Shown: piece by piece, positions 19,173 through 35,936 of the stretch
Layout: every line of letters begins with the position of its first letter
Numbering within the stretch: the stretch's first letter is position 1
DNA from: Chitinophagaceae bacterium
GTDB taxonomy: Bacteria; Bacteroidota; Bacteroidia; Chitinophagales; Chitinophagaceae
DNA: 64,000 nt
Direction: 5' to 3'
Assembly: GCA_017307735.1 (NCBI GenBank)
Contig: JAFKGR010000019.1
Span: 2,622 to 66,621 of the forward strand
Program-made: the position numbers and the translations under genes
The notes under the pieces: model-generated
Database searches by the model: none
Told to the model about the DNA's origin: nothing
Seen by the model: only the letters and a program-made list of their open reading frames with translations

Positions 19173-19346
19173 TTACAAATAAAAAGTTGCCCTCTTCAGA
19201 GGGCAACTTTGCAATGCATTCGCCAGGTCTCCTTTGCTGACCAGCGCTAACGAATAGTCGATCTGGAAAGAAGGATAAGTACCGGTGATTGCACTTCCCA
19301 CTTTTCCAGAGAATCCGCCAAGGATTCCCTTTTTAATGATACCCAT
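19173..19346 (-). pseudogene. Internally deleted DUF6266-family gene remnant (57 codons; below the ORF-track cutoff)
   Basis: Manual translation: MGIIKKGILGGFSGKVG-SAITGTYPSFQIDYSLALVSKGDLANALQSCPLKRATFYL*. The GILGGFSGKVG N-terminus and AITGTYP..IDYS..LVS.G.L block are normally well separated in this family. Confidence 0.72.
19183..19210. terminator. Bidirectional terminator-like hairpin
   Basis: AAAGTTGCCCTC-TTCA-GAGGGCAACTTT, perfect 12 bp stem between converging reading frames. Confidence 0.75.
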
Positions 19347-19356
19347 AATAATTTGT

Positions 19357-19416
19357 TTTTGGGGTTAAAAAAAATTGTTTGTCACACTTCGTTTTCTTGC
19401 AAGTAGCGTTGTGTAC
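19357..19416 (+). repeat. ~60 bp direct repeat, copy 1
   Basis: ttttggggttaa...ttgtttgtcacacttcgttttcttgcaagtagcgttgtgtac; the 29 bp core 19388-19416 is identical to 34957-34985. Confidence 0.93.
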
Positions 19417-20037
19417 CTATAGAACGACAATTGATTTGTACAGATATAAAATGAGAGGAGATAGCGTAGCAATACATCACATTTGGGCAGGGCTACGCAC
19501 GGACAAGCGTAAAGGTACGCAGAAAGAAGGAAATCTTTTTGATGGTTATCCCGGATTTTAATACACCCGGTAATACATGTTATCAGCACATCTCATCAGC
19601 CCGATTCGCTGTAGCGAAGGCGGAGCCGCATGGGAAAATTCATTTTGCAGATCCTCTGATGTATCCAAACTATTAAGTTAGTTGGAAAGATATAAAAAGG
19701 AGAATTTTACCCAACGTGATAAACCGGAATATCAGTACTCTGTGGACCGCATATGCCATCCTGAATAGCAACGGGCTTTGTTATCCCGAATATGCGAGGC
19801 GCTATGAGTATCTATTTTTACATCGCTTTGATAAACCAGAAACATTAATTCGAAACAATGGTATTCTCCAAATCAAATCTCCCAACAAGGCAGAATATTT
19901 TCAGTTCTCAGATTTACTCTTTACTCAACAATCAAGTTTAGCAGAACTGTATGAATAATACTCTCTAAATGGTGCTTTGGATTCTAAAAGTCTCAGGATT
20001 CGTCCTTTATTCTAAAAAAATAGTTTGAATTATGTAA

Positions 20038-23000
20038 TTATTTTTTTTCCAGTTGGGTTAAAAATTTTGTTGGGCTGATACCAAATTGCCGTTGGAAATC
20101 CCTGGAGAAATTGGAAGGATGCGAATACCCGATCATGTAAGCAACTTCGTTTATTTTGTAGTCGCCGGAAGATAATAATTCAGCAGCCTTTTTTAAACGT
20201 GATAGGTTGATTAACTCATTCGGAGTGAGATCCGATAGGCCTTTTATTTTGCGATAAAGTGTCGCCTTGCTCATATTCATTGTTTCTGAAAGTTTTTCAA
20301 CACTTAATGATTCGTCATTTATGTTTTGATAAATCACATCATTTAGTCCTTCAAGAAATTCCTGATCGGTTTTGGAGCACGCAATTCCTTTGATATGTGT
20401 AAGTGGCGAACGTGCGAAGTACTCTTTAATCTTATTTCTGTTTGCAAGTAAATTGGTGATTTGTGCCTGCAAGTGTTCCAGGGAAAAGGGTTTTTCTATA
20501 TAGGCATCTGCACCCACTTCAAGTCCTTCTATTTTAGATTGAATAGAATTCTTTGCCGTGATGAGTATAATGGGAATATGGGAGTGCTGAAAGTCATTCT
20601 TAATTTTTTTACACAGTTCTATTCCGTCCATAACAGGCATCATTATATCACTTACCACCACATTGATATTTTCATTTTCAAGGATATGCATTGCATCCTG
20701 ACCGTTTTCTGCCGGAATAACATTATACTTTTCACTTAATTCTTTTCTGATGTAGTCTAATATGTCTGTATTATCCTCAACTAATAAGATGATGGGTCTT
20801 GTTGAATCGAATGAATTAAATTGGGTTGGTTCGTTTGATATATTCTTGTTTTCCTGGTCAGGAGTGTCAATTAAATTGATTGTTGTATCCTGATGGATTG
20901 GGAGTGAAAGCAAAAAAATATTTTGACCGTCGTCTGAGGTTTTCAGGCAAAGGGTTCCATGGTGGAGTTGTGCAAGAGACCTTGCCAGTGGAAGTCCGAT
21001 GCCCGTGCCGGATTCTTTTTCAGTTTCTTTCATACGAAAAAACGGTTCAAATATTTTTTCTTTGAATTGCAGAGGTATTGTATAACCGTCGTTTCTTACT
21101 TCAATATGAAAAAGAGAATCTTCGCTGCTGAAAGGCAGTAATTGCACCCGTACGGATTGATCTGCATATTTAATTGCATTATTCAACAGGTTGCTCAATA
21201 TTTTCTTTACAGCTTCCGTATCTACAAAAGCCTGAAGTGTGATTCTTGGAGTTTCGATCCGATAGGTCAAGCCTTTTTGTTCTGCTGCAGGTTTGAATGT
21301 TGAGAACACTTCTGACGCCAATTCATTGATATCGGTCTTTGCAAAACTGAGAATGAAATTATTGGCCTCCGCCTTACGAAAGTCGAGTAGTTGATTGGTC
21401 AGGTCAATGAGGCGGTTGGTATTTTTTTTCATGATTTCAAGACTTTCGTTCATGTTTATATCGGTAACGCTGCTGTTGAGCAATTTGTCCAGAGGCAGTT
21501 TTATAAGGGTGAGTGGGGTCCTTATTTCATGCGCTACATTAGTGAAAAAATTGATTTTTGCATTATAGATTTCTCTTTCAGTATTTATTTTTATTGATTC
21601 TATTCTTCTTTTATTTTTTTCTGTTAATGCCAGATGATAATATCTCAGAATCGTTATTATGATCGCCAGCACAATCAGCAGATATAATGAATAAGCCCAT
21701 CTGGTGGCCCAAAATGGCGGAAGGATTTTTATTTGAAGTATCGTTTCCCGGTTGTTCCATACCCCTTCGCTATTAGAGCCTTTCACTCTGAAAGTATAAT
21801 TCCCCGGAGGCAATTTAGTATAAAATATTTTTCGGTTCTTTTTAATAGTAGTCCATCCTTTGTCAATCCCTTCCATTTGATAAGAATATTCATTCATTTC
21901 AGGAATAATATAACTAAGTGCGGCTACATCAAGGCTTATATTTGAATTGTAATAGGGTAATGTAATTTCCCTTGTATAGGTGATAGATTCAGTAAGCCCG
22001 GTCTTTTTATTCCCAATAACTGCTTCTTTGTTATTCACCTGAAATCCGGTTATATAAACAGGTGGAACAAAAGTATTTTTTACAAAATCTCCCGGATTAA
22101 AACTTACCATTCCTTTGACGGTTCCAAAAAAGAGAGTGCCATCGTCGTTTTTAAAAGAAGAATTATAATTGAATTGGTCTGTTGGTAATCCGTTTGCAAT
22201 TTGGTAATTATTAAACTTTTGGGTTTGGGGATCAAATCTGCTGAGCCCCTTTGCGGTTGATATCCAGAATTTCCCTGAGTTATCTTCAAGGATGCGGTAA
22301 ATCTGATTATCTGGCAATCCGTCTTCCACTGTATAATTTCTGATTTTCTTCGTCCTGGTATTATAATATGATAATCCTCTCTCTGTACAAAACCAGAAAT
22401 TTTTTTTTCTGTCTTCTATCAGATTATTTACATAATTATCTATGATCCCATTTTCGCTGTCCCTGCTGGTTTGTATTCTGCCCTTTATTTTTTGTTTCTC
22501 GTTTTGGTAAAATATACCATCTCCATAGGTACCCACCCACAGTGTGCCGTTTTCATCTTCATAAATGCATTGAATGTGGCTGTTGAAAAATGGGACAGCG
22601 GTAAAATTATTTTTCTCTCTGTTGTACCTGAAAAGGCCGTTCCATGTACCAACCAATATTTCACCTGAATGAGTTCTGTAGAGAGATATGATAAAATTAC
22701 TGGCAAGTGAGTTGGGTTTTGTTGATGCATTGTAATGCCTAATAACCTTTTTGGTAGTCAGATCCATCACGTCTAAACCATGTTCATAGGTTCCAATCCA
22801 TAATTCGTTTCCATCAGCCACTATTCCATGGATGTTGGAATAGGAGATACTTCCTTTTTTATTGTCAGGTTTAAAATTCGTTATATGCCCATTTTTAAGA
22901 TTAATACAGTTAAGTCCCGCATCCTCTGTCCCTACCCACAGTTCCCCGTATTTGTCTTTGCATATTTCGTGAACAATATTTCCGCTAAGGCTGTTCTTGT

Positions 23001-24018
23001 CTGGCTCCGGAAAGTATTTCTTAAACGCATTGTATTGTTTTGAATAATAATTGACACCTCCGAAAAAAGTTCCGATCCAGATTCCGCCTTCCTTGTCCCC
23101 GGTAATAGAAAACACTACATTGTCTGTAATAGAATAGGGGTTGGTGTAGTCTTTGGAAACTATTTGAGTAGTTAATGTCTTTATGTTGACAATGTATATC
23201 CCGTTTTCTGTTCCAAGCCAGTATTCATCTCCCGATCTGTGAAATATTTTGTGAACCTGTACATCATGAATGGCGGGATTGCCTTTAAAAATATTTTTTA
23301 TAGTTGAATTTTTGTAATTAAGAAGAAGCACTTCATTCATACATCCAATCAATATCGAGGAATCTCCTATCGGAAATATATCCTCAATGGGAGACAGCTT
23401 GTTTTCTTTATAAAGTTTTTTTATGTCGTAATCGATGAAGTTTCCGGAATGTTGATCCAGGTGTTTAATAAGTCCATTAGAAGTAGCAGTCCAGACGTCT
23501 CCCTCTTTTGACACATGCAGGGCAATCGTCTGATCGTTTTTTAATTTGAATGGAGTAACGTGGTTGCCTGTTGGATTGATCTTATACAAAGTGAAATTTG
23601 AAATAATCCAGATATTATTCTGACGATCGCCGGATATAAAGCGTACTTCACCCGGATCAATTAATTTAAATTGTCTGAAGTGTTCCTGCAATGGATTATA
23701 AATGTAAATCCCGTTATAGGTTCCAATCCATAGCTGTTCTTTTTGATCTTCAAACAAACTAAAAATGGAATTACTGCCCAGGCTCAGTGAATCAGATAAA
23801 ATGTTTTGAAATACTTTGAATGTATTGCCATCAAAACGGTTAAGTCCGTTCCGGGTCCCTATCCAGATAAATCCTTTTTTATCCTGTAAAATACTTGTAA
23901 TTGTATTGCTTGAAAGCCCGTTCTGTACCTGATAGTTTTTAAAATAGTAAGTAGAATTCTGAGCAAGGCAAATCCCCGTGAAAAGCAAAAAAATGGTTGA
24001 AAAAAATAATCTTTTCAA
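20038..24018 (-). CDS. Hybrid two-component system sensor kinase/response regulator (Reg_prop propellers, Y_Y_Y, HisKA, HATPase, REC, AraC HTH)
   Basis: GLSSNTITSILQDKKGFIWIGT repeats, FFTNVAHEIRTPLTLI, GTGIGL, VVSDIMMPVMDG, C-terminal AraC helix-turn-helix. Confidence 0.97.
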   Translation of the reverse strand: MKRLFFSTIFLLFTGICLAQNSTYYFKNYQVQNGLSSNTITSILQDKKGFIWIGTRNGLNRFDGNTFKVFQNILSDSLSLGSNSIFSLFEDQKEQLWIGTYNGIYIYNPLQEHFRQFKLIDPGEVRFISGDRQNNIWIISNFTLYKINPTGNHVTPFKLKNDQTIALHVSKEGDVWTATSNGLIKHLDQHSGNFIDYDIKKLYKENKLSPIEDIFPIGDSSILIGCMNEVLLLNYKNSTIKNIFKGNPAIHDVQVHKIFHRSGDEYWLGTENGIYIVNIKTLTTQIVSKDYTNPYSITDNVVFSITGDKEGGIWIGTFFGGVNYYSKQYNAFKKYFPEPDKNSLSGNIVHEICKDKYGELWVGTEDAGLNCINLKNGHITNFKPDNKKGSISYSNIHGIVADGNELWIGTYEHGLDVMDLTTKKVIRHYNASTKPNSLASNFIISLYRTHSGEILVGTWNGLFRYNREKNNFTAVPFFNSHIQCIYEDENGTLWVGTYGDGIFYQNEKQKIKGRIQTSRDSENGIIDNYVNNLIEDRKKNFWFCTERGLSYYNTRTKKIRNYTVEDGLPDNQIYRILEDNSGKFWISTAKGLSRFDPQTQKFNNYQIANGLPTDQFNYNSSFKNDDGTLFFGTVKGMVSFNPGDFVKNTFVPPVYITGFQVNNKEAVIGNKKTGLTESITYTREITLPYYNSNISLDVAALSYIIPEMNEYSYQMEGIDKGWTTIKKNRKIFYTKLPPGNYTFRVKGSNSEGVWNNRETILQIKILPPFWATRWAYSLYLLIVLAIIITILRYYHLALTEKNKRRIESIKINTEREIYNAKINFFTNVAHEIRTPLTLIKLPLDKLLNSSVTDINMNESLEIMKKNTNRLIDLTNQLLDFRKAEANNFILSFAKTDINELASEVFSTFKPAAEQKGLTYRIETPRITLQAFVDTEAVKKILSNLLNNAIKYADQSVRVQLLPFSSEDSLFHIEVRNDGYTIPLQFKEKIFEPFFRMKETEKESGTGIGLPLARSLAQLHHGTLCLKTSDDGQNIFLLSLPIHQDTTINLIDTPDQENKNISNEPTQFNSFDSTRPIILLVEDNTDILDYIRKELSEKYNVIPAENGQDAMHILENENINVVVSDIMMPVMDGIELCKKIKNDFQHSHIPIILITAKNSIQSKIEGLEVGADAYIEKPFSLEHLQAQITNLLANRNKIKEYFARSPLTHIKGIACSKTDQEFLEGLNDVIYQNINDESLSVEKLSETMNMSKATLYRKIKGLSDLTPNELINLSRLKKAAELLSSGDYKINEVAYMIGYSHPSNFSRDFQRQFGISPTKFLTQLEKK

Positions 24019-24109
24019 AACGTTTGGCTTGATTTAATATCAGGTTTAATAAACACTTCTTTACAGTAACTAAAGTTATTTTATAGAGAAAGGCCTGCCA
24101 AATAAATTC

Positions 24110-24142
24110 TCAAAAATGAAACGATTTGAATCAAAAATGAAA
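24110..24142 (+). promoter_or_regulatory. Putative HTCS (AraC) binding site: tandem direct repeat with 21 bp period
   Basis: TCAAAAATGAAA at 24110-24121 and 24131-24142, between the divergent HTCS and susC genes. Confidence 0.7.
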
Positions 24143-24236
24143 AGAATTGAATTATGAGAAAAAGATGATGAAGGTACATTTGGAAAGTCTTTCAAAAGTC
24201 CGTTTATATTTATTTCAGTTTTTTAAATTAATCGCT

Positions 24237-27200
24237 ATGAGTAATTTTTGCCGCGTAAAAATTTTTCAGCAGAACAGATCAAAGGCTATTATAATGGTAG
24301 TATTCCTGTATCTGATATTTCCATTAAGCGGCTTTTCATCTCCAGAGCCGGAATTCAGAAACCCTGATTTTTCCGCCTCACCCTTTGGTGTATCTATAAA
24401 CATTTCAGGGAAAGTAACAGATGAAAACGGAATCCCGCTCCAGGGAGTAACGATAAATGAGAAAGGTACCGGCAATACAACAATGACAGATATAAATGGA
24501 AATTTTGAACTGCCGGTTGGTTCCCCCCGTTCTGTATTAGAAATAAGTTTTGTCGGATTTGCTTCAACGGAAATAGAGGTAGGTAGCCAAACAGAATTCA
24601 ATATTGTATTAAAGAGAAGTATCAGTGCCATGGATTCTGTTGTGGTTATCGGTTACGGTACACAGAGGAGAGGGGATTTGACAGGTTCTATTTCTTCCAT
24701 CAAGAGTAGTGATGTGGCCTCACTCCCTGTCCCGGATGTCGGGCAGGCAATAGAAGGAAAAGCCTCCGGGGTACAGATCGTTGCATCAGGTGCTCCCGGA
24801 AGTAATGTTACCATCAGGGTTCGTGGCGTAGGCACCGTTAATAATAGCGATCCTCTTCTTGTGATTGACGGCATCCCAACCGATGTACCCTTAAATACAA
24901 TCAATCCCAATGATATTTCTTCTATAGACATTTTAAAAGATGCATCCGCGTCCGCTATTTATGGATCGCGGGGAGCAAATGGTGTGGTGATTATTACCAC
25001 CAAAAAGGGAGTAAGCGGTCAAAATCATTTGTCATTTAATTCATTTGTTGGTTCACAAAAAGCCACTGGTATGGTTAAGATGCTCAATGCCTCTCAGTTT
25101 GCTTTACTGAATAATGAGATGATGAAAAATAATAATCAGGCTACTTATTCAGGGTATGCCAATCCGGAATCCCTAGGAAAAGGAACGGGTTGGATGGATC
25201 AAATGTTTAGGACTGCTTCAATACAAAGCTATTCAATAGCTTATTCGGGAGGAAATGATAAAGCCAATTATTATGTTTCCGGAGGATATTTAGATCAGCA
25301 GGGTATAGTAATTAATACAGGTTATAAGAGATATAATATTCAGTTCAACAGTAATGAAAAAGTATTTAAATGGTTAAAGTTCGGGAATGCACTTACTTTA
25401 AATCATGATGAAAAACCAAGCGGCTCCTATAATATTCGCAATACTATGGCCGCCAATCCCACCTTGCCGGTTTTTAATAACGATGGTACTTATGCCGGAC
25501 CTGTGGGCCAACCGCAATGGGTCGGAGATGTAACGAATCCTGTTGCATTGGCAACATTGGTAAAAAACAATACCAGCGGTTATAATATTCTGGGGTCCAT
25601 TTTTGCAGAGATCACACTTGCCAAGGGGCTTACCTTTAAAAGTGTTGGCGGCATTCAGGCACAGTTCTGGGACAGCAGAACGTGGTCACCTGCGTATGAT
25701 TATGATCCTATCCCGCAACCAAGTTCTTATTTGTCTCAGCAATACAACAAGAGTATTACATTGAATTGGGACAATTATTTTACCTATGACGGTCATTTTG
25801 GATTGCATCATGTCACAGGTATGCTGGGTACCAATGCTCAGCAAAATAAGATCAATTGGATATCCGGAAATGTTCAGGGTTTCGCAAGCGACGTTACCCA
25901 GCAACTCAATAACGGGACCTTAAATCCAAATGTAAACGGAACCGGATACGAGTGGGCATTGGCTTCTTATTTTGGAAGAATAAATTATGAATACGACAAT
26001 AAATATTTATTTACCGGTACTCTCAGAAGAGACGGATCATCGCGGTTTGGAGAAAATAATAAATGGGGAACTTTTCCGTCTGCATCAGTGGCATGGAAAA
26101 TTTCAAATGAAAAATTCTTCCAGGATATTCCGTTTATCAATGAATTGAAAATCCGTGCAGGGTATGGCGTAACGGGAAATCAAAATATCGGAAATTATTC
26201 ATTCGCTTCCACCCTTACTTCCGCAGTATATGTTTTCAATGGGAATGTGGTACCCGCAGAAATTGCCATGGTGATGGCCAATCCAAATGTACAATGGGAA
26301 TCAGTAAAACAATCCAATATAGGATTAGATGCTGCATTGTTTGGTCAGCGTATTTTATTTACCATAGATGCGTATTTGAAAAATACTTCTAAAATGCTGG
26401 TACCCATGCCAGTGCCTATATCCACAGGATACTCTGATATAATTGTACCTTTTATCAATACAGGTAAGGTGCAAAACAAAGGAGTGGAAATTGCATTGAC
26501 TTCAAAAAATTTTGTTGGAAAATTTTCCTGGAACACAAGCCTGAATGTTTCGTTTAATAAAAACAAAGTGGTTTCACTTTATCAGAATACGCCAATGTAC
26601 ATAGGAAGCGGAATTGGGCTGAATGGTACGCTAGCTACAAATACGGTTGGATATCCTATCAATTCGTTTTATGGATACGTGATGCAAGGTATTTTTCAGA
26701 CACAAAAGGAGGTGGACAATGCTGCAGTCCAGGTTCCGGGAGCAGACCCTTACAACCGAACTTCCGCAGGTGATGTCCGGTTCAGAGACCTGAATAATGA
26801 TGGTGTCATTAATGATGGCGACCGAACTATTCTTGGTGATCCCAATCCTCAGTTTATTTATGCCATTACAAATAATTTTAGCTATGCCGGTTTTGATCTG
26901 AGTATATTTTTACAGGGGGTACAGGGCAATGATATTTTTAATGCCAACAATGTTTTTCAGGAAAGCATGGCAGTAGCTCAAAATCAGACCGAGCGGGTTT
27001 TGGGGAGATGGGAAGGTGAAGGAACAAGCAATACTATGCCGCGGGCTATTTTTAATGACCCGAATAATAACTCAAGGATTTCATCGCGATTTATAGAAGA
27101 TGGATCCTATATGCGGATAAAAAATATCACATTGGGATATACATTACCCGGGACTTTAATTCATCGTTATAAAGTTCAGCAAATCAGAATATATGCTTCT

Positions 27201-27326
27201 GCTCAAAACCTTGCGACGTTTACCAAGTATTCCGGTTTTGATCCGGAGGTTCCTTCCAATGGTGTAGATTTCAATGTATATCCGGTAACACGGGTTCTCA
27301 GCCTTGGACTAAATATCACTTTTTAA
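24237..27326 (+). CDS. SusC/RagA TonB-dependent transporter (ORF track starts at 24147; ATG 24237 more likely)
   Basis: Plug motif DISSIDILKDASASAIYGSRGANGVVIITTKKG, RRDGSSRFG, FRDLNNDGVIND, C-terminal LGLNITF; no STN extension. Confidence 0.97.
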   Translation: MSNFCRVKIFQQNRSKAIIMVVFLYLIFPLSGFSSPEPEFRNPDFSASPFGVSINISGKVTDENGIPLQGVTINEKGTGNTTMTDINGNFELPVGSPRSVLEISFVGFASTEIEVGSQTEFNIVLKRSISAMDSVVVIGYGTQRRGDLTGSISSIKSSDVASLPVPDVGQAIEGKASGVQIVASGAPGSNVTIRVRGVGTVNNSDPLLVIDGIPTDVPLNTINPNDISSIDILKDASASAIYGSRGANGVVIITTKKGVSGQNHLSFNSFVGSQKATGMVKMLNASQFALLNNEMMKNNNQATYSGYANPESLGKGTGWMDQMFRTASIQSYSIAYSGGNDKANYYVSGGYLDQQGIVINTGYKRYNIQFNSNEKVFKWLKFGNALTLNHDEKPSGSYNIRNTMAANPTLPVFNNDGTYAGPVGQPQWVGDVTNPVALATLVKNNTSGYNILGSIFAEITLAKGLTFKSVGGIQAQFWDSRTWSPAYDYDPIPQPSSYLSQQYNKSITLNWDNYFTYDGHFGLHHVTGMLGTNAQQNKINWISGNVQGFASDVTQQLNNGTLNPNVNGTGYEWALASYFGRINYEYDNKYLFTGTLRRDGSSRFGENNKWGTFPSASVAWKISNEKFFQDIPFINELKIRAGYGVTGNQNIGNYSFASTLTSAVYVFNGNVVPAEIAMVMANPNVQWESVKQSNIGLDAALFGQRILFTIDAYLKNTSKMLVPMPVPISTGYSDIIVPFINTGKVQNKGVEIALTSKNFVGKFSWNTSLNVSFNKNKVVSLYQNTPMYIGSGIGLNGTLATNTVGYPINSFYGYVMQGIFQTQKEVDNAAVQVPGADPYNRTSAGDVRFRDLNNDGVINDGDRTILGDPNPQFIYAITNNFSYAGFDLSIFLQGVQGNDIFNANNVFQESMAVAQNQTERVLGRWEGEGTSNTMPRAIFNDPNNNSRISSRFIEDGSYMRIKNITLGYTLPGTLIHRYKVQQIRIYASAQNLATFTKYSGFDPEVPSNGVDFNVYPVTRVLSLGLNITF

Positions 27327-27337
27327 AACTGACAGCC

Positions 27338-28819
27338 ATGAAACTAAATAAATCGTTTGTTGTTATTTCTTGTATGGTAATATTTGCTACGGGATGTTCC
27401 AAGACATTCCTGGAAAAGTCCCCTCTTGATTCGGTTAATACATCCAACTTTTATAAAACTGCCGGTGATGCCGTGGCCGCTATCAATGCGGCTTACCAGC
27501 CCCTTCAGCGTCCGAAGCTTTATAATATGCGTATGTGGACTACGGATATAATGGCCGGGAATAGTGAGGTAGGGGCAGGTGGCGGAACCGACGGAATAGA
27601 AACCAAGGACGAAGCCAATTTTGTAACGACGACAGACAACGCCGGAGTATTAGACCTGTACAGAGGCCCGGCTCCTGGCATACTGGCCTGTAATATCGTT
27701 TTGGAAAGAGTACCCGCCATTAATATGGATCAGGATTTAAAGGACAGAATTTTAGGGGAAGCTCATTTTTTAAGAGGGTTATATTATTTTATTTTGGTTC
27801 GCTTTTTTGGAGACGTTCCCTTAATTACCAAACCCCAGAATGCAGGAGACGATTTGAAACCCGCCCGTACGCCCAAAGACAAAGTATATGAACAAATCGT
27901 CAGCGATCTTAATGATGCAATAACGATGCTACCACCGCGCGAAGATTATTCAGGCTCAGAAGTGGGCCGCGCGTCAAAAGGGTCGGCGGTAGGGCTCCTG
28001 GCAAAGGTGTATCTGACTTTAGGTGACTATCAGAAGACGGTAGATCTCTGCCGCCAGGTAACTAACCTGGGCTATCAATTAAATCCGGATTATTCAGATA
28101 ATTTTTCGGCAACGAAAAAGAATACAATAGAATCACTTTTTGAAGTGCAATATAGCGGAGCAACAACCTATGGTTTTTTTGATGATTTTAATCAGGCATC
28201 GTGGTTAAGCACATTTACCGGCCCCCGCAATTCCGATTTCGTAGGAGGCGCTTATGGCTGGAACCAGCCAACACAGGAATTTGTTGATTCTTATGAACCC
28301 GGCGATTTGCGAAAAGATAAAACAGTTTTATATGAAGGGTGCCCTCCTTTCGATGGTAAGGATTACAAAGCATCTTATTCCGGGACAGGATATAATCTGA
28401 GAAAATTTTTAGTTCCGAAATCGATATCACCTGATTATAATACCAATCCTGAAGATTTTGTGGTATTGCGATATGCAGATGTTTTGCTGATGGAAGCAGA
28501 GGCATTAAACGAGCTCGGGCAGATGGATGCAGCTATCGTCCCTTTAAATGAAGTGCGTGAAAGAGCAGGCCTGCCGGATAAACAGGCGAATGTTTCCAAA
28601 GATGAAATGAGAACCGTTATACTTCACGAAAGACGGATGGAACTTGCCTTTGAGGGGCAAAGATGGTTTGACCTTATTCGTGTACAGAATGGCCAGTACG
28701 GATTGGATTTTTTACATTCCATCGGAAAAGTAAATGCCACCCAGAAGTTTTTGTTGCTGCCCATTCCACAGGTGGAGAGAGATGCCAACGAGAACCTTAC
28801 TCAAAACCCGGGATATTAA
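27338..28819 (+). CDS. RagB/SusD family lipoprotein
   Basis: Lipobox ATGC, GEAHFLRGLYYFILVRFFGDVPL, LRYADVLLMEAEA, ERRMELAFEGQRWFDLIR, LTQNPGY. Confidence 0.97.
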   Translation: MKLNKSFVVISCMVIFATGCSKTFLEKSPLDSVNTSNFYKTAGDAVAAINAAYQPLQRPKLYNMRMWTTDIMAGNSEVGAGGGTDGIETKDEANFVTTTDNAGVLDLYRGPAPGILACNIVLERVPAINMDQDLKDRILGEAHFLRGLYYFILVRFFGDVPLITKPQNAGDDLKPARTPKDKVYEQIVSDLNDAITMLPPREDYSGSEVGRASKGSAVGLLAKVYLTLGDYQKTVDLCRQVTNLGYQLNPDYSDNFSATKKNTIESLFEVQYSGATTYGFFDDFNQASWLSTFTGPRNSDFVGGAYGWNQPTQEFVDSYEPGDLRKDKTVLYEGCPPFDGKDYKASYSGTGYNLRKFLVPKSISPDYNTNPEDFVVLRYADVLLMEAEALNELGQMDAAIVPLNEVRERAGLPDKQANVSKDEMRTVILHERRMELAFEGQRWFDLIRVQNGQYGLDFLHSIGKVNATQKFLLLPIPQVERDANENLTQNPGY

Positions 28820-28847
28820 TTTTTGACAACCAGTAAACGAATTTTAT

Positions 28848-30347
28848 ATGCAATTTTCATTTTTATTTTTAAAACAAAAGAAGGCGACAACTTTTCTGCA
28901 GGTTTGTATTGCTATAATATTTTCAGGCATGCTGTTTCTATCCTGTAAAAAGACGGGAATTGTTATCCCCGGTGCGACAAATGGCCCCCTGGCAATAACA
29001 ACTTCTGATTCTTCGCTTATTCTGAATCAGCTAAATCAAAATAATACTGCAATCACATTCACCTGGACAACCGGTACCAATGAAGGCACCAATTCCGCTA
29101 TTACTTATTCTTTTCAATTGGATAAGAAGGGGAATAATTTTGCTAATCCCATTGCTCTTGATTTAGGGAAACAGGTGTATTCTCTGGATTATACAACAGG
29201 GCAATTGAATGATAGTCTTTTGCATCATTGGAATATTGCACCCGGAACATCAGCAGTCTTTGAAGCCCGGGTTATTGCTACAGTTTTGGGATCATCTCTG
29301 CCACCTCAGATATCCAATAGTACAGAATTTTCTGCCACACCGTACCAACCGGTATCATCTACTTTATATATTATTGGCGGGGCCACATCCACCGGCTGGG
29401 ATAATAATCTGGCGCAGGCGCTGACTACCGATCCTGAAACCCCGGGTGGTTTTATTTATAAGGGTACACTTTCACCGGGCACTTTCAAATTTATAACCAC
29501 ACATGGAAGTTTTTTACCATCTTATAATCAAGGTGCAGACAGTTCAAAATTATTTTACAGGACTTCTGATTCTCAGCCGGATGACCAATTTACTATTTCA
29601 GAAACCAGCGTTTATAAAATAACGGTGAATCTCATCACGCTTAGTATCAAGGTTGAGAAACTGGCACAGGCTCCGTATTCAAAATTGTGGATTATAGGAG
29701 ATGCTGTTCCAAAGGGATGGAATATAAGCACCCCTGATTCAATGTTCAGAAATCCCAATAATGAATTTGTTTTTAAATACAACCAGATTCTCAATTCCGG
29801 GGAGTTTAAAATTCCTACGGCTGCCACCGGAAACTTTAGTGTTCCATTTTATATGCCTCTTTCCAATCATCCTGATGTATCAGAAACAGGCGTCCAGTTA
29901 GTGCAAAGCGGGGGAGATGATTTCAAATGGTTAATAACTAATCCCGGAGCCTATAAGATTACACTCAATCTTTTAGACATGTCAATTCACATAGTCCCGT
30001 TTCAGCCTTATGCTAAATTATGGATTGTGGGAGATGCTACTCCGAACGGATGGAACATAGACAATCCTACTGAGATGACAGCCACGGCTGATCCCAATGT
30101 GTTTACCTATTCCGGCCACCTGAATGTGGGAGAATTTAAAATGCCTGTTGCTACCGGTGATTGGGGTACCGATTTCTTCAGGCCTTACAAAAACCACCCG
30201 GACATAAGTGACACCGATGCTCCCTTTGTGAAGCATGGTACGGCGCCTGAAGATACAGATGATTATAAATGGTATATTCCGGTTGCCGGTAATTATACAA
30301 TCACGCTAAATCAATTGTACGAGACTATCTCCATAGTAAAACAATAA
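28848..30347 (+). CDS. SusE/SusF-like surface glycan-binding lipoprotein
   Basis: Lipobox FLSC, SusE-type N-terminal Ig domain (AITFTWT...YSFQLDKKGNNF), three LYII/LWIIGDA..GW...GEFK modules. Confidence 0.88.
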   Translation: MQFSFLFLKQKKATTFLQVCIAIIFSGMLFLSCKKTGIVIPGATNGPLAITTSDSSLILNQLNQNNTAITFTWTTGTNEGTNSAITYSFQLDKKGNNFANPIALDLGKQVYSLDYTTGQLNDSLLHHWNIAPGTSAVFEARVIATVLGSSLPPQISNSTEFSATPYQPVSSTLYIIGGATSTGWDNNLAQALTTDPETPGGFIYKGTLSPGTFKFITTHGSFLPSYNQGADSSKLFYRTSDSQPDDQFTISETSVYKITVNLITLSIKVEKLAQAPYSKLWIIGDAVPKGWNISTPDSMFRNPNNEFVFKYNQILNSGEFKIPTAATGNFSVPFYMPLSNHPDVSETGVQLVQSGGDDFKWLITNPGAYKITLNLLDMSIHIVPFQPYAKLWIVGDATPNGWNIDNPTEMTATADPNVFTYSGHLNVGEFKMPVATGDWGTDFFRPYKNHPDISDTDAPFVKHGTAPEDTDDYKWYIPVAGNYTITLNQLYETISIVKQ

Positions 30348-30463
30348 ACGAACAAAAGACTTGTTTGATAAACTTTCTTTTAAAATTAAATCCTTAGTTA
30401 TCAGATCAGGGATATCGCGACCTGGATTACAAATATTTTTTTAACGCTAAAGGAAAACTAAAA

Positions 30464-32224
30464 ATGAAAAATATTCTTTTAATGTGTCTGCTTAGCACGT
30501 TGGTTTCTACATCGAGCTGCCGGAAGGCTCCGGTAAAAGATAACACGGGGATAATTAATCAGGAAAATCAATATCCGGTTAATATTAATACTGATAAAGC
30601 GATGTATTCTCCAGGCGATAATATTAATTTTTCCATTGATAAGGCATTGCCTTCAGGCACAGTTGTAACCTATAAATATTTGAACAGCGTGGTGGCAAAG
30701 CAAGAGCTGAACGGTACTTCATGGACATGGAAAGCACCCTCGCAGGATTTTTCAGGTTATATGGTAGAAATTTCCCGTGAAGAAGGTGGGAAAAACAAAA
30801 TATATGGTTGTATTGGAATTGATGTATCCTCTGATGCAGCAAAGTTTCCAAGAAATGGATTCCTTTCCAAATATGGCCAGATGAGTGAAGTGCAAATCCA
30901 CAATGTTATGTCAAATTTGAACAGGCTTCATATCAATTGGGTTCAGTTTCAGGATTGGGAATTTAAGCATCATGAGCCTCTGGCTGGCACCCCCTCTGAT
31001 CCGGCTGAATCATGGAAAGATATTGCAAACCGTACCAATTACAAGTCGACTGTACAGGGATACATAGCCGCTGCCAAATCTTATAATATGAAAACCCTCT
31101 CTTACAATGCAATTTACGGAGCGCTGGATGATGCAGCATCAGATGGAGTAAGCGATCAATGGTATATGTATGAAGATCAGCACCATCAAACCAGGCCGGT
31201 TCTTCAATTGCCGCCTCCTTTCAAAAGCAGTATTTATTATATGGATCCTTCTAATACTGGATGGCAGAATTACATTGCCGGCAAAACAAAAGAGGCTTTT
31301 GAGGTGTATGATTTCGACGGCAATCAGGTTGATCAGTATGGGAATCTGAATAAAAAAGTTTATACCTATTCAGGAGAACCGATTGATGTGGAGACCAGTT
31401 TCAAGTCTTTCCTCGAAGCTATGAAAACCGACATGCCGGATAAGAAGTTGGTGATGAATGCTGTAAACCAATATGGCCAGCAAGTAAGTATATCCAAATC
31501 ACCGGTTGATTTTCTTTATACTGAAGTGTGGGCGCCTAATGAAGGATACAAAGATCTGGCAACCATCATTCAGGAAAATGATGAATGGAGCAACTATTCA
31601 AAAAAGAGTGTGCTCTGCGCTTATATGGATTATAATCTTGCGGCAAATCCGGGATACTTCAATACGCCGGGAGTCTTGCTGACCGATGCCGTTATTTTTG
31701 CCTTTGGCGGTTCACATCTCGAAATGGGAGAGCACATGTTGGGAAAGGAATATTTTCCCAATGATAATTTACAGATGCATGCCGACCTGAAAAACGATAT
31801 TGTTAGTTATTATGATTTCCTCACGGCTTATCAGAATCTATTACGGGATGGCGGTAATTTCAATAATCCGTCATTTACTTCTGCAGATGGGAAAATCAAA
31901 TTTAATAACTGGCCTCCCGCCATTGGTTCGGTTTCCGTTATCGGGAAGGATATGGGACAAAAACAAATTATCCATCTTATCAACTTTTCAAATGCATCAT
32001 CTTTGAGTTGGAGGGATGCAGATGGTACCCAGACTGTACCTGATTCTTTGACTGATTTTGAGGTAAAATTTTCGACGGCGAAAGTGATCAAGAAAATATG
32101 GATAGCCTCACCGGATATAGATTATGGCTCATCTCGGGGAATTGAATTTAAACAATCAGGGGATGCTGTTTCTTTTAGTGTGCCCTCATTATTGTACTGG
32201 GATATGATTGTAATCGAATATTAA
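30464..32224 (+). CDS. Glycoside hydrolase family 66 (dextranase / cycloisomaltooligosaccharide glucanotransferase-like), lipoprotein
   Basis: Lipobox TSSC; FPRNGFLSKY, HINWVQFQDWEFKHHEPL, DGNQVDQYG, LVMNAVNQYG, FLYTEVW, GGSHLEMGEHML resemble Bacteroidota GH66 dextranases. Confidence 0.88.
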   Translation: MKNILLMCLLSTLVSTSSCRKAPVKDNTGIINQENQYPVNINTDKAMYSPGDNINFSIDKALPSGTVVTYKYLNSVVAKQELNGTSWTWKAPSQDFSGYMVEISREEGGKNKIYGCIGIDVSSDAAKFPRNGFLSKYGQMSEVQIHNVMSNLNRLHINWVQFQDWEFKHHEPLAGTPSDPAESWKDIANRTNYKSTVQGYIAAAKSYNMKTLSYNAIYGALDDAASDGVSDQWYMYEDQHHQTRPVLQLPPPFKSSIYYMDPSNTGWQNYIAGKTKEAFEVYDFDGNQVDQYGNLNKKVYTYSGEPIDVETSFKSFLEAMKTDMPDKKLVMNAVNQYGQQVSISKSPVDFLYTEVWAPNEGYKDLATIIQENDEWSNYSKKSVLCAYMDYNLAANPGYFNTPGVLLTDAVIFAFGGSHLEMGEHMLGKEYFPNDNLQMHADLKNDIVSYYDFLTAYQNLLRDGGNFNNPSFTSADGKIKFNNWPPAIGSVSVIGKDMGQKQIIHLINFSNASSLSWRDADGTQTVPDSLTDFEVKFSTAKVIKKIWIASPDIDYGSSRGIEFKQSGDAVSFSVPSLLYWDMIVIEY

Positions 32225-32239
32225 TCCTCCTCCCTCCAA

Positions 32240-34921
32240 ATGAAAAAATATATCCTGATTATAATGGTTCTGTGCTATATCCTTAATAGTTGCAGTGTCA
32301 CAAACAAAACTGTTCTTTATCAATCGAAAGAATTTACAGTTTATCGCGATAGCGTGAATGCAGGGCCATATACTGCAAAAGCCATTTCAAGAAATGAAAT
32401 AGTTTCTGATTATGTCAGCGCTGCCAATGAATATGTTAGCCCTAAAGTGATTTTTAAGTTCAGTATTAATGGGGCAGACAACTCAGCGCCTTCCGGGAAA
32501 GATAATTCTATTGTTTGTACTGGAAGTGTCAGCATTTACGAAACCCCGGTGATAAAATTTGGGTCTCAATATGTAGATTCTTCAAAAATTCTATCCGGAG
32601 AATATCTGAAAAAGGATGTGAGGCTTACTCTGCGTGTGGATATGAATGAAGTGTTGAATTCTTTTAAGACCAAAGGGTATTATGTTTCTTATGACGGGAA
32701 GAAAATTTACCGGAGTGATTTCAAGGGTGTTTTTGTAGCGGGTAATATAGCGCCTCTCACCTGGGATTTCAATAATCTTTATTCTCATAAGGAATTACAG
32801 ATGACCGACGTGAATCATAACGGAATTTATGAAATTACACTTACCCTGAATCAAAATCCGGATGCAGAAAAAACGGCCCATTCGTGGAAGCGGACAAAAA
32901 ATTTAAGTCCATTTCCCCAATACCATTCTTCTGATGTTTTGCCGGATGCATTGTACAATCTTGCACTTGAAGAAATGGAAAATGCAATTGAACCGGACAG
33001 TACTTTTCGCACTGGTAAAGAATGGGCGGGGGTATGGACAAGAGACATTAGCTACAGTATCATATTGTCTATGGCTATATTGCAGCCGAAAGTTGCCATG
33101 ATCAGCCTGAAGAAGAAAGTAAAAAATGGGAAGATTATTCAGGATACAGGTACCGGTGGAGCTTATCCTGTTTCTACCGACAGAGAAATATGGGCCGCGG
33201 CAGCCTGGGAGGTGTATAAAGTTACCGGAGATAAAGAATGGCTTCAGTATGCTTATGAAGTAATTAAAAACTCTGTCAATGATGATCTTGAAAATATCCG
33301 GGATAATGCAACGGGTTTGATGAAAGGAGAATCTTCCTTCCTGGATTGGAGGGAGCAAACATATCCGGAATGGATGCAGCCGGCAGATATTTATGAATCG
33401 GAATGTCTGGGAACCAATGTGGTGCATTTTGTTGCTAATACAGTACTGTCTGAAATGGCATCTATATTGGGGTTTGAGTCTGAAGAAGAAAAGCATAAGG
33501 AAGTAGCGGCACAAATTAAAGCAGGAATAAACAAATACCTGTGGCAGGAAGATAAGGGATATTTTGGCCAGTATCTTTATGGAAGAACATTTAAGATCCT
33601 TTCCCCGAAATCAGAGGCGCTTGGCGAAGCATTGGCTGTTTTATTTGATGCTGCGGATAAAAACCGTCAGGAAAAGGTGATATCCAATACGCCTGTGACA
33701 CCTTACGGAATTTCTTGTATTTATCCACAGATACCGGGTATCCCGCCTTATCACAATAATGCCGTATGGCCGTTTGTTGAGTCTTATTGGGCACTGGCTT
33801 CGGCAAAAGTCGGAAATGAAAACTCTGTGGTGAGGGCCATCGGATCGATATACCGGGCTGCAGCATTATTCCTCACCAACAAAGAAAACTTTGTGGCTGA
33901 TAATGGAGATTATGCGGGTACTCAGATCAATTCAAGTAATATGCTTTGGAGCCTTTCCGGCAATATCAGCCTGATTTATAAATTGTTTTTCGGAATGCAT
34001 TACGGAGTGGATTACCTTTCTTTTGCCCCGTTTGTGCCAAAAGTATTCAAGGGGAAAAGAACTTTATCCAATTTCAAATACAGAAATGCCATTTTAAATA
34101 TAGAGATGATTGGTTTTGGCAATAAGGTAAAATCATTTACCGTTGATGGGAAAGAATCCGCCGATCATCGGGTATCTTCTTCACTTAATGGAATACATGA
34201 AATCAAAATTATTTTAGACAGCAAAAATATTTCGTCTAAAAATATAAACGCATCAGAGAATCTTTTCAGTCCCCAAACGCCTTCTGTAAAATATGTAAAT
34301 GGACTTTTATTATGGACGAATGTCGGGAAAAATATTTCCTATAAGGTTATACGAAATGGTAAACAGGTTAGTGACCAAAATGATTTATCATTCAAAATTG
34401 ATTCAACTCTTTTCGGCGACTATCAGGTAATTGCCGTTGAAAAGAAAGGATTACAATCCTTTGCCAGCGAACCTTTGAACATATACCCGCGCACTAATGA
34501 ACAAATGGTGCAATTAGAAGATTTTGCTCTTCGGTCTGACAAGCCTTATCAGGGATCCACAGGTAATGGATTCGTAGAAGTTAGTAAAAACGGTAACCGG
34601 AAAATTGTTTTTGATATTGATGTGAAAGAGGAGGGAGCGTATATTCTTGATGTGCGTTATTCAAATGGAAACGGCCCGATAAATACAGAAAATAAATGTG
34701 CATTCAGGACATTATATGTCGATAAAAATAAAACCGGTACATGGGTATTCCCGCAAAGAGGAAAAGAAGAATGGAGTAACTGGGGGTGGAGCAACCCGCT
34801 AAGAATACATTTGACAAAGGGTCTTCATCATTTGGTAATCAGTTACCATAATTCAGATGAGAATATGAATGGAACTATCAATCAGGCAATGCTGGATGTG
34901 GTAAGGATAATAAGAAATTGA
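32240..34921 (+). CDS. (alpha/alpha)6-barrel glycosidase (MGH1-like / amylo-alpha-1,6-glucosidase-like) with internal and C-terminal CBM-like modules, lipoprotein
   Basis: Lipobox LNSC; GVFVAGNIAPLTWDF starch-CBM-like module; WAGVWTRDISYS, GESSFLDWREQTYP, PPYHNNAVWPFV; C-terminal EGAYILDVRYSNG...LTKGLHHL jelly-roll. Confidence 0.75.
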   Translation: MKKYILIIMVLCYILNSCSVTNKTVLYQSKEFTVYRDSVNAGPYTAKAISRNEIVSDYVSAANEYVSPKVIFKFSINGADNSAPSGKDNSIVCTGSVSIYETPVIKFGSQYVDSSKILSGEYLKKDVRLTLRVDMNEVLNSFKTKGYYVSYDGKKIYRSDFKGVFVAGNIAPLTWDFNNLYSHKELQMTDVNHNGIYEITLTLNQNPDAEKTAHSWKRTKNLSPFPQYHSSDVLPDALYNLALEEMENAIEPDSTFRTGKEWAGVWTRDISYSIILSMAILQPKVAMISLKKKVKNGKIIQDTGTGGAYPVSTDREIWAAAAWEVYKVTGDKEWLQYAYEVIKNSVNDDLENIRDNATGLMKGESSFLDWREQTYPEWMQPADIYESECLGTNVVHFVANTVLSEMASILGFESEEEKHKEVAAQIKAGINKYLWQEDKGYFGQYLYGRTFKILSPKSEALGEALAVLFDAADKNRQEKVISNTPVTPYGISCIYPQIPGIPPYHNNAVWPFVESYWALASAKVGNENSVVRAIGSIYRAAALFLTNKENFVADNGDYAGTQINSSNMLWSLSGNISLIYKLFFGMHYGVDYLSFAPFVPKVFKGKRTLSNFKYRNAILNIEMIGFGNKVKSFTVDGKESADHRVSSSLNGIHEIKIILDSKNISSKNINASENLFSPQTPSVKYVNGLLLWTNVGKNISYKVIRNGKQVSDQNDLSFKIDSTLFGDYQVIAVEKKGLQSFASEPLNIYPRTNEQMVQLEDFALRSDKPYQGSTGNGFVEVSKNGNRKIVFDIDVKEEGAYILDVRYSNGNGPINTENKCAFRTLYVDKNKTGTWVFPQRGKEEWSNWGWSNPLRIHLTKGLHHLVISYHNSDENMNGTINQAMLDVVRIIRN

Positions 34922-34926
34922 GTGTA

Positions 34927-34985
34927 TTTTGGGGTTAAGAATGTTGTTTGTTACAATTCGTTTTCTTGCAAGTAGCGTTGTGTAC
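34927..34985 (+). repeat. ~60 bp direct repeat, copy 2
   Basis: ttttggggttaagaatgttgtttgttacaattcgttttcttgcaagtagcgttgtgtac, starting 6 nt after the glycosidase stop codon. Confidence 0.93.
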
Positions 34986-35147
34986 TCATTATTGTTACCT
35001 GATTAAAACCATGACAGAATCCTGATACTAATCATTATGATTATTCGTTTAAGCTAATTACTTTTGCATTCTGGTTTTAGGAATAATTTCTGACCGGATT
35101 ATGATTAAACCAGGATTCTCTATCCATAAAACCACCGAATACCTATA

Positions 35148-35936
35148 ATGAAAGACCACATCCTGCGTATTGAGTCGAGTATTAACAGCGGCATATCAGG
35201 CCACGGCTCGGGGCTTATTGAAATCATCTATTCCTTTTTATTGCCGGAATACAAAATCAATTTTTTTGACACCATTCATGTAAATGAAATCGGGAATGAT
35301 TTGAAAGAATCCGTTTTGAAAGTCGGCCGGAATGTTTATATCAATCTGTGGTGGCCGCTGTCGGTGAATTTTGAATCCGTAAAAGAAGAAGAGAAAAAAT
35401 TTATCAGGCTGCGCCTCGTGCATCACGCATTGATGATGCTTGCAGATGAGGACGAAAGAATCAATAAGGATGCCCTTGAACAAATCAGAATGAGAATATT
35501 GAAAAATAATTTTAATTTTGAATTTGATATGGAAGAACTTCCCAATGAAGTGCTTCCGGATATCGAAGCAAAGCTTGTGGTAGTTCCTGAAAATTCCCTT
35601 TTTAATATTTTCCTCGATGTTTATAAAATGAAAGAAAGAACCTGCAGGTTGCTGATTTACCAGGGCATTCCTGTTCCCATTTATCTGAACGATTTGTTTT
35701 CGTCTGCAGGCTGGAAAGATGCCCATCATTTAACTATATCCGGCAGCAATTCTGAAGTAACTATAAAAGTAGATTTTGAGAACTGTAAAATTGAATACCA
35801 GGTACAGGGGAGCCCAATGCTGAAAGCACCCTATTTCGAGTTGTTCAAATCTTATCAGTACAGCGGAGAGCCACTGGAGGTTTTTGTTCATTCGCTGAAT
35901 CCCGGCAGGAAGGTGGTTGTGAACCACGAGGTTTGA
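35148..35936 (+). CDS. Hypothetical protein, 262 aa, no signal peptide
   Basis: Long ORF with ATG start and protein-like composition; no family motif recognised. Confidence 0.7.
   Translation: MKDHILRIESSINSGISGHGSGLIEIIYSFLLPEYKINFFDTIHVNEIGNDLKESVLKVGRNVYINLWWPLSVNFESVKEEEKKFIRLRLVHHALMMLADEDERINKDALEQIRMRILKNNFNFEFDMEELPNEVLPDIEAKLVVVPENSLFNIFLDVYKMKERTCRLLIYQGIPVPIYLNDLFSSAGWKDAHHLTISGSNSEVTIKVDFENCKIEYQVQGSPMLKAPYFELFKSYQYSGEPLEVFVHSLNPGRKVVVNHEV

Follow-up and report, generated by a model that had tools for sequence, protein, structure and literature searches.

Two copies of a direct repeat in the window (the whole 64,000-nucleotide stretch analyzed) enclose 15.5 kb that hold exactly six genes. 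On the minus strand lies a gene for a predicted hybrid two-component system regulator (HTCS; 20038-24018; Pfam Reg_prop, Y_Y_Y, HisKA, HATPase_c, Response_reg, and HTH_18). The remaining five, all on the plus strand, are predicted to encode a SusC-like TonB-dependent transporter (24147-27326; Plug, CarbopepD_reg_2), a SusD-like protein (27338-28819; SusD_RagB, SusD-like_3), a SusE/SusF-like surface glycan-binding protein (28848-30347; SusE, SusF_SusE), a GH66 dextranase-family enzyme (30464-32224; Glyco_hydro_66, E = 2.9e-199), and an (alpha/alpha)6-barrel glycosidase assigned by Pfam (32240-34921), which has a weak, sub-threshold match to CBM6 near its C terminus. The C terminus of this last protein is intact and matches those of relatives through the natural stop codon (comparison with 8 relatives). 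A preliminary description of the locus had listed these same six PUL genes and noted the absence of an integrase or transposase between the repeats; our analysis of open reading frames (ORFs) and Pfam domains agrees on both points, with all ORFs of at least 60 amino acids in the interval accounted for by the six genes.

The adjacent SusC and SusD, the GH66 enzyme and the dedicated regulator mark the locus as a probable dextran-type Bacteroidota PUL, named for its predicted substrate. A core of SusC, SusD, SusE/F, and GH66 with an adjacent dedicated regulator is likewise found in FjDexUL, the dextran locus of Flavobacterium johnsoniae, and in Bacteroides GH66/GH31 dextran PULs (PMC10316084). 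In FjDexUL the regulator is of the SusR type and GH31, GH97, and GH65 are also present, whereas the locus here combines an HTCS with one (alpha/alpha)6 glycosidase that carries the weak CBM6-like match; flanking repeats are not described for FjDexUL (PMC10316084). Homologous GH66 PUL loci have a patchy distribution, occurring in 22 of the 126 other species of the genus (Ginsengibacter, according to one named match). A comparison of composition, which had been proposed as a check, showed no contrast: the GC content of the PUL matches that of its flanks. The flanks contain a TlpA-like gene, a DUF6266 remnant, a gene for a 262-amino-acid protein, a sigma factor gene, and an ATPase gene, with no recombinase.

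The direct repeat pair

A repeat search of the window placed the two copies at 19354-19416 (copy 1) and 34923-34985 (copy 2). They are 63 nt long and 86% identical without gaps, and in a gapped alignment 57 of 64 columns are identical (89%), bearing out the direct repeat of about 60 bp in the preliminary description. Its division of the repeat into a 29-bp core and a conserved block fared less well. The 29-mer is indeed identical at both copies; the window contains it at 19388-19416 and at 34957-34985, on the plus strand in each case, and nowhere else, and none of 100 shuffles contained any match to it. The split between core and block is statistically meaningless, in that an identical run of 29 in 64 columns with 7 differences was reached in 8.7% of shuffles (p = 0.087, not significant), and we saw no identical core clearly set off from divergent arms in the aligned copies. 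The contrast between the identical 29 nt and an adjoining arm of 74% identity could suggest gene conversion or a crossover point, a reading that was dropped after the gapped alignment and shuffle test. Similarly, copy 2 had been said to begin 6 nt past the last stop codon; the alignment begins 1-2 nt past the stop codon of the glycosidase gene, and the figure of 6 nt applies to the TTTTGGGG block.

The genome-wide search for the 29-mer suggested at the outset returned two copies only, and pattern matching with up to 3 mismatches, blastn-short, and a profile search all recovered just these two repeat copies in the 4.1 Mb genome. Two other candidate identities were set aside: an invertible promoter, there being no inverted copy of the core nearby, and an RNA element, for which folding z scores ranged from -1.2 to +1.0 and no Rfam match was obtained at E ≤ 1.

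A DUF6266 5' region, complete at copy 1 and truncated at copy 2

Family alignments and profile searches place the repeat within a 5' region that is conserved in one DUF6266 subfamily (subfamily A, defined here). The second of two alternatives in the preliminary description, DUF6266 upstream elements, was therefore right about identity, since the repeat matches the upstream DNA of intact subfamily members at an equal distance from the ATG. Positions 19296-19416 of the window align at 84% over 124 nt to the beginning of an intact DUF6266 gene, together with its upstream DNA, in another genome (G082), and a shared architecture is found upstream of at least 25 subfamily genes in related Chitinophagaceae. 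This module comprises a GTAYAC..TTGCAA box near -60 and a T-run followed by AACCCCAAAA near -25. A profile built solely from 7 orthologous DUF6266 upstream regions detected both copies in the window (E = 6e-23 for copy 1 and 2.5e-5 for copy 2), with no further significant match in the genome. The DUF6266 coding sequence that should follow is present at copy 1, as a remnant matching PF19781, and absent at copy 2.

Copy 1 (minus strand) corresponds in family alignments to an internal part of the 5' region, about -8 to -70 from the ATG, with the gene remnant still attached. The full native 5' region spans 19344-19500 on the minus strand (profile positions 24-184, nhmmer, 76.5 bits), and family homology thus runs about 85 nt past the distal edge of copy 1, to about 19500, on the side of the PUL. 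When the repeat was masked, 19418-19499 was still the top profile match in the window, at a score that is modest by itself (E = 0.003, 12 bits). Because of this continuation, the DNA that adjoins copy 1 on the PUL side is native DUF6266 upstream sequence and not element DNA. Directly downstream of copy 1 on the minus strand lies a DUF6266 pseudogene remnant of 57 amino acids (19173-19346; PF19781, E = 1.5e-7), in which, judging from translations aligned to intact homologs, the N-terminal 18 residues are fused to profile positions 75-108 and the C-terminal half is absent. A terminator-like hairpin of 12 pairs followed by a T-run (19183-19210, minus strand) is kept after the remnant; the surrounding positions 19121-19213 match another contig of this genome (C18) at 82%, beside a DUF6266 C-terminal fragment. 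Together, these alignments show that copy 1 lies in a native 5' region, preserved in full, whose DUF6266 gene has decayed. Beyond it, a non-coding spacer (19501-20037) extends to the HTCS stop codon; tblastx against the genome and all loci retrieved from relatives detected no homology in it, and a remnant of the usual upstream response regulator was not found in 19417-20037.

Copy 2 (minus strand) is an orphan fragment of such a 5' region, cut on both sides. The profile match there is limited to 34922-34985 and covers profile positions 108-176 only (nhmmer, 19 bits), and DUF6266 family homology extends to neither side: the start codon and coding sequence are absent from one, and the distal upstream part from the other. 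Where the coding sequence would be expected, there is instead the 3' end of the glycosidase gene in antisense orientation. Past its other end, after 2 nt, begins a duplicated unit of 966 bp (34988-35953, plus strand), consisting of an ORF of 262 amino acids (35148-35936) and its upstream region, and 91% identical to positions 52895-51927 of contig C14 of this genome. The 262-amino-acid protein has no match in Pfam, NCBIfam, PHROGs, or PADLOC. Both copies of the unit sit upstream of genes for an ECF sigma factor, FecR, SusC, and SusD; at the locus studied here, the sigma factor gene of this neighboring PUL lies at 36280-36882 (plus strand; Pfam), and in two other genomes (G043 and G065) its ortholog is directly preceded by a DUF6266 gene or pseudogene.

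In this genus, the DUF6266 family is patchy in distribution, multi-copy, and often decayed, and its genes typically lie beside regulatory modules and PULs. It is present in 51 of 127 genomes of the genus in up to 10 copies, many of them truncated. Close homologs lie directly downstream of a gene pair for a HisKA_3 kinase and a GerE-type response regulator, an arrangement that suggests the 5' module may be a regulated promoter. The family bears only its Pfam name, PF19781 (DUF6266); NCBIfam, PHROGs, and PADLOC gave no match to it, and we found no paper that mentions DUF6266. Possible edges of a DUF6266 cassette were sought by comparing G082 with contig C16 of this genome; synteny is lost there and the contig ends.

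The locus in relatives and in sampled populations

The repeat is rare. The 29-mer, with up to 3 mismatches, has no match in the 126 other species of the genus; neither the exact 29-mer nor a relaxed pattern matches JGI metagenome contigs; and among 185,579 GTDB species genomes the sole match is G082. This rarity rules out a dispersed element. Homologous dextran PULs in seven relatives lack a DUF6266 gene in their flanks of about 8 kb. A search of 127 genomes with DNA of both flanks found no empty site and only relatives too divergent for comparison; in G043 and G065, the sigma-FecR-SusC side of the locus alone is shared, and their left neighbors have no ortholog in this genome. Acquisition of the PUL at its present place is neither shown nor excluded, because no close relative with an empty site was found.

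Four metagenomes from four studies contain both junctions, and the depth of the PUL equals that of its flanks. A joint that would connect 19416 to 34986 after deletion of the PUL was not seen in their contigs (Logan contigs drop rare variants). Contigs from JGI, ENA, and Logan have the same filled arrangement with both junctions. In one assembly, an insertion sequence (IS) with a 6-bp duplication lies 47 nt away from copy 2. Copy 2 itself has the same sequence in all other assemblies examined, an invariance that says little among strains that are about 99%-100% identical. In two runs (X12 and X16), contigs around 19330-19420 have bases resembling copy 2 at copy 1, which may reflect either strains in which ongoing gene conversion has made the copies alike or cross-mapping. 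These data show fixed junctions, and we regard the PUL as a stable part of the chromosome in the population sampled.

Origin of the repeats

We favor the interpretation, which we regard as reasonably probable, that the repeats are scars left by local decay and rearrangement of genes in an intergenic zone prone to insertions, and not attachment sites. The two copies would be paralogous versions of the promoter/5'-leader region of a DUF6266 gene, with copy 2 as a 63-nt internal piece stranded at the rearrangement seam between the 3' end of the dextran PUL and the separately duplicated 966-bp unit. Copy 2 could be the last remnant of a second DUF6266 gene that was eroded from both sides, or it could be a short ectopic copy laid down in the rearrangement that brought the 966-bp unit. 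The two duplications have diverged to a similar degree, the repeat copies being 89% identical and the unit copies 91%. Traces of a second DUF6266 coding sequence, which would prove the version with an eroded paralog, were not found. It is a tidy coincidence for a deletion to end precisely at the stop codon and for an insertion to end precisely at the fragment's opposite edge, and the conserved module may still work as a promoter or operator instead of being inert. We infer the order and mechanism of these events; no genome near enough to show the ancestral arrangement was found. As in other pseudogene-erosion relics of multi-copy accessory genes, one copy sits on an internally deleted pseudogene and the other is an orphan fragment. 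The difference from ordinary relics is that the two here happen to bracket exactly one PUL, which gives the locus the look of a cassette.

The preliminary description had read the repeats as attL/attR-like scars by which a complete PUL was gained as an excisable cassette. In a concrete form of this proposal, a circular 15.5-kb PUL cassette with one copy of the DUF6266 promoter integrated into a resident DUF6266 promoter, by a trans-acting site-specific recombinase or by homologous recombination, and can re-excise via the repeats. It has some appeal: the two direct repeats occur nowhere else in the genome and frame precisely one whole PUL plus its regulator; the patchiness of GH66 PULs indicates that PUL gain and loss do occur; and 29 nt of identity should roughly suffice for RecA-dependent recombination, near the lower limit for efficient recombination. 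Nevertheless, we consider it quite improbable. The cassette should leave element DNA from 19417 and native continuation past copy 2, and the opposite is seen: homology passes straight through copy 1, which is no junction, and is absent on both sides of copy 2, whose distal edge is accounted for by the 966-bp unit. The recombinase that an att pair requires, within or beside the element, is absent among the ORFs of the interval and flanks, and GC contrast is lacking. The claim of an excisable cassette is likewise unsupported by the fixed junctions, alike in other assemblies, the even depth, and the missing deletion joint in four metagenomes. Further points against it are the related PULs without a DUF6266 gene in their flanks, the scarcity of the 29-mer beyond G082, and an identical run that is not significant. 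A variant in which DUF6266 5' modules act as portable homology patches for the exchange or loop-out of PUL-sized blocks by homologous recombination, the dextran PUL having entered and being able to leave via the 29 nt and the asymmetry arising from later overwriting of the distal side of copy 2 by the 966-bp unit, strikes us as very improbable. Rare RecA-dependent loss of the PUL across the 29-nt identical stretch is possible, and excision at low frequency could escape notice in contigs. The locus does resemble known short repeats that support RecA-dependent deletion, in that two direct repeats with a 29-nt identical run 15.5 kb apart could delete the PUL; it differs from them in that no deletion product was detected and in an identity at the lower limit for efficient recombination.

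Copy 2 might instead be a duplicated DUF6266 promoter or operator that has stayed functional and is bound by the same regulator as copy 1 (perhaps the NarL-type response regulator commonly encoded ahead of DUF6266 genes). It would then either drive antisense transcription into the 3' end of the PUL operon or shield the PUL from the adjacent locus. Copy 2 keeps the conserved box region of the module in full and is also unchanged in other assemblies examined, and close DUF6266 homologs directly follow the HisKA_3 kinase/GerE-type regulator pair. However, selection on the regulon is doubtful in this genome, given that copy 1 itself precedes a decayed pseudogene; no equivalent element was found after the glycosidase gene in relatives; no RNA structure or Rfam family was found; and the near-identity of the strains compared leaves little weight to the invariance. 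We therefore think a functional duplicate unlikely. Barely conceivable, in our judgment, is that the repeats are the target-site duplication or terminal repeats of a PUL-carrying transposon. Direct repeats do lie at both ends of the gene block and the region attracts insertions, as the IS near copy 2 attests. Known target duplications are 2-14 bp long, far shorter than 63 nt, whereas the copies here are merely 89% identical, copy 1 continues natively past the repeat, and the interval contains no transposase or terminal inverted repeats.

PUL-bearing integrative (and conjugative or mobilizable) elements are known in Bacteroidota; a porphyran PUL, for instance, is reportedly carried on an integrative element in gut Bacteroides. 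The locus studied here is like such elements in having direct repeats of tens of bases around a complete accessory PUL. In contrast to them, it lacks integrase, excisionase, and transfer genes; its repeat belongs to a gene's promoter region, which is whole at one copy and truncated at the second; on the supposed element side of copy 1 the native sequence runs on; and no empty site or excised form was found in the data sets searched.

Had the repeats been attachment sites, the locus would have represented a minimal, integrase-free mobile PUL cassette, with implications for the spread of glycan-use traits among Bacteroidota. Our results point instead to ordinary relics, left by the decay of a multi-copy gene family, that flank a PUL by chance. 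This outcome counsels caution: before direct repeats that bracket an operon are named att sites, each copy should be checked for whether it really is a junction. For the DUF6266 family, our analysis provides a first description of its 5' module and its neighborhood, with a two-component system upstream and PUL/TonB-receptor genes downstream.

The repeat pair around the dextran PUL

The window contains exactly two occurrences of the 29-mer on which the preliminary description centered, 19388-19416 and 34957-34985, each on the plus strand; shuffled window sequence gave no match. A repeat search stretches the pair to 63 nt (copy 1, 19354-19416; copy 2, 34923-34985), with 57 of 64 columns identical (89%) in a gapped alignment. 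As had been described, the copies bracket six genes of a dextran-utilization gene cluster (PUL): HTCS (20038-24018, minus strand), SusC, SusD, SusE/F, GH66 and an (alpha/alpha)6 glycosidase (GH gene; 32240-34921, plus strand) with a weak, sub-threshold CBM6 match. No further ORFs of note lie between them, and the ORF and Pfam scan of the PUL found no recombinase, integrase or transposase, as originally stated. Copy 2 does directly follow the GH stop codon, at 1-2 nt and not the 6 nt first given; the GH protein is not shortened at its C-terminus, which agrees with that of eight relatives to their stop codons. The proposed genome-wide search returned only these two copies, and pattern, blastn-short and profile searches detected no others in the 4.1-Mb, 99.6%-complete subject genome, of which the window is C10:2622-66621. 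The identical core had been set apart from an adjoining conserved block; this distinction fails because, given 7 differing columns among 64, 8.7% of shuffles reach an identical run of 29 or more, and the core is nothing special within the repeat.

Two nucleotides past copy 2 begins a 966-bp unit (34988-35953) that is 91% identical to a segment on another contig of the same genome (C14:52895-51927). The abrupt distal end of the repeat is thus a seam with an unrelated duplication and not the edge of an att core. The 89% identity of the repeat pair is close to the 91% between the two units, compatible with duplications of similar age. Each unit carries a 262-aa ORF of unknown family (94% amino acid identity between the two copies) and sits just upstream of an ECF sigma, FecR, SusC and SusD set. 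The 262-aa protein has no match in Pfam, NCBIfam, PHROGs or PADLOC, and elsewhere in the genus it is found in one other species only, at 37% identity.

Several observations concern this right flank. Three of the four metagenomes each yield a contig, at the depth of the organism, in which 34988 (precisely where the unit starts on the left) is linked to opposite-strand positions 36080-36116 and then to unrelated sequence. The flank of the C14 paralogue in this assembly does not account for the joint, which may be a graph artefact or reflect a third setting of the unit. An ENA contig (L097, ERZ778017) carries, at the equivalent of 35032-35037, an IS encoding a 424-aa DDE_Tnp_1_4 transposase and flanked by a 6-bp target duplication. 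This strain polymorphism lies 47 nt from copy 2, in the region upstream of the 262-aa gene, indicating that the zone attracts insertions; it has no bearing on PUL excision. Farther right, an AAA-ATPase gene (37182-38681) splits the ECF sigma (36280-36882, plus strand) from FecR (39420-40604). Its full length matches PDC-S27, a candidate defence system in PADLOC (E=1.7e-205), and its DNA identity to copies in genomes G058 and G071 (87-89%) is far above the ~70% of neighboring genes, which suggests recent lateral spread.

A DUF6266 upstream region, complete at one copy and truncated at the other

Read on the minus strand, copy 1 stops 7 nt short of the ATG of a 57-aa ORF matching Pfam DUF6266 (PF19781). 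This ORF is a decayed gene: its initial 18 residues match the family N-terminus, after which it skips to profile positions 75-108, and it has lost the C-terminal half but retains a terminator hairpin. Searching the genus with the flanks turned up an intact DUF6266 gene in a Chitinophagaceae MAG (G082), whose start and upstream region match window positions 19296-19416 at 84%. At least 25 subfamily genes, drawn from ~20 species and metagenome contigs, share an upstream layout in which a GTAYAC...TTGCAA box ~60 nt before the ATG is followed by a T-run and then AACCCCAAAA ~25 nt before the ATG. Both copies conform to this layout, which places the repeat within the conserved 5' region of a DUF6266 subfamily, presumably its promoter and leader; folding of the repeat gave no significant RNA structure, and Rfam no match. 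The earlier phrase "DUF6266 upstream elements" is borne out by the G082 match and the shared layout. The same intergenic zone contains further gene debris, a 115-aa thioredoxin-fold ORF (18758-19105) that is a fragment from the C-terminal end of a TlpA-like gene; it is most similar (78% amino acid identity) to full-length genes in G082 and a second genome, G102, and not to the adjacent 494-aa TlpA-like gene.

The two copies differ in how much of this region they retain. In a profile built from the seven closest orthologous upstream regions, window sequence excluded, positions 24-184 align at copy 1 (19344-19500, 76.5 bits), and family homology runs ~85 nt past the distal edge of the repeat on the PUL side. 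At copy 2, positions 108-176 alone align (34922-34985, 19 bits), covering only the repeat. With both copies masked, 19418-19499 remained the top match of the whole window (E=0.003), collinear and on the expected strand. Profile coverage with and without masking identifies copy 1 as a complete, native 5' region and copy 2 as an internal fragment truncated at both edges; the PUL-side DNA adjoining copy 1 is DUF6266 upstream sequence, not the end of an inserted element.

Origin of the repeats and mobility of the PUL

We consider it probable that the repeats are paralogous copies of a DUF6266 5' region, complete in copy 1 and truncated in copy 2, the latter a relic at the seam where the PUL 3' end meets the duplicated 262-aa unit. 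Copy 2 could be all that is left of another DUF6266 gene after erosion at both ends, or else a short ectopic copy from the rearrangement that brought the 966-bp unit. An att or Campbell-type origin is very unlikely: it predicts the reverse of the flank asymmetry seen and found no positive support. The attL/attR proposal is not supported, given that homology continues past copy 1, copy 2 is cut on both sides and the PUL contains no recombinase. A transposon origin is effectively excluded. Copy 2 might instead have retained a function, as a promoter, stray or regulated, that drives antisense transcription into the GH gene; we regard this as unlikely.

The broader proposal of an excisable cassette fared no better. 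GC content is equal inside and outside the PUL, so the composition check revealed no contrast. The left junction is present in many public runs (bioreactor, activated sludge, wastewater, soil). Among contigs of four runs from four different studies, mapped to 17001-37000, PUL depth equals flank depth, some contigs span copy 1 into the HTCS gene and others the GH gene through copy 2, and none joins 19416 to 34986, although Logan contigs drop rare variants. Contigs from exact protein look-up (JGI 3300009868, ENA ERZ778017, several SRR runs) all show the same arrangement, with identical repeat copies. Nor is the 29-mer a common dispersed element: allowing up to 3 mismatches, it is absent from the 126 other species of the genus; it is also absent from JGI metagenome contigs, and a relaxed pattern matched G082 alone among 185,579 species genomes.

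Of the 126 other species in the genus, 22 have GH66 PULs, making the dextran PUL accessory. The best match (74% amino acid identity) is in genome G125, which shows no match to the repeat, and no DUF6266 gene lies in the ~8 kb flank of homologous PULs in seven relatives. No relative close enough for ancestral-site reconstruction was found in the genus; the left neighbors in genomes G043 and G065 lack orthologues in the subject genome. Among homologous dextran PULs the closest is that of G125 (G125:C6; L084, L085), with amino acid identities of 82% for SusC, 88% for SusD, 74-78% for GH66 and 73% for GH; unlike the window locus, it is without an HTCS gene beside SusC.

Within 19355-19387, the sole contig on copy 1 in metagenome run X12 bears copy-2-like bases (19373, 19374 and 19383), and it ends at 19416; a minor contig in run X16 does likewise, reflecting either cross-mapping of copy 2 or strains with homogenised copies. 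Between 24300 and 31000, strains differ by 1-3% across SusC through GH66, in contrast to near identity in the HTCS gene, the last GH gene and both flanks, a pattern suggestive of recombination among strains within the PUL.

DUF6266 genes beside PUL regulators

DUF6266 is patchily distributed, occurring in 51 of 127 genomes of the genus, in up to 10 copies per genome and often truncated. (Genus-wide tallies take in two unpublished genomes, G023 and G059, neither of which underlies any specific claim.) The closest intact homologues directly follow a four-gene block ending in a HisKA_3 kinase and a GerE-type response regulator, and directly precede PUL or TonB-receptor genes. The block also holds two small unknown proteins of ~113 and 215 aa (metagenome contigs L107, L113-L115, L118, L121; genus loci L063-L082). 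The neighborhood of these subfamily-A genes is conserved; P0002, one and the same DUF6266 protein, has two distinct downstream contexts. The G043 orthologue of the window's sigma-FecR-SusC locus (SusC 92% amino acid identity) has a DUF6266 gene from a different subfamily divergently upstream, and in G065 a DUF6266 pseudogene precedes the sigma orthologue. From these arrangements and the homologue neighborhoods, DUF6266 genes or relics beside PUL regulators are usual in the genus.

The 29-nt identical direct repeat could permit rare RecA-dependent loss of the PUL, unobserved here, and this is the sole mobility-related consequence we defend. The repeats resemble a cassette boundary, yet they would be an ordinary genomic relic.
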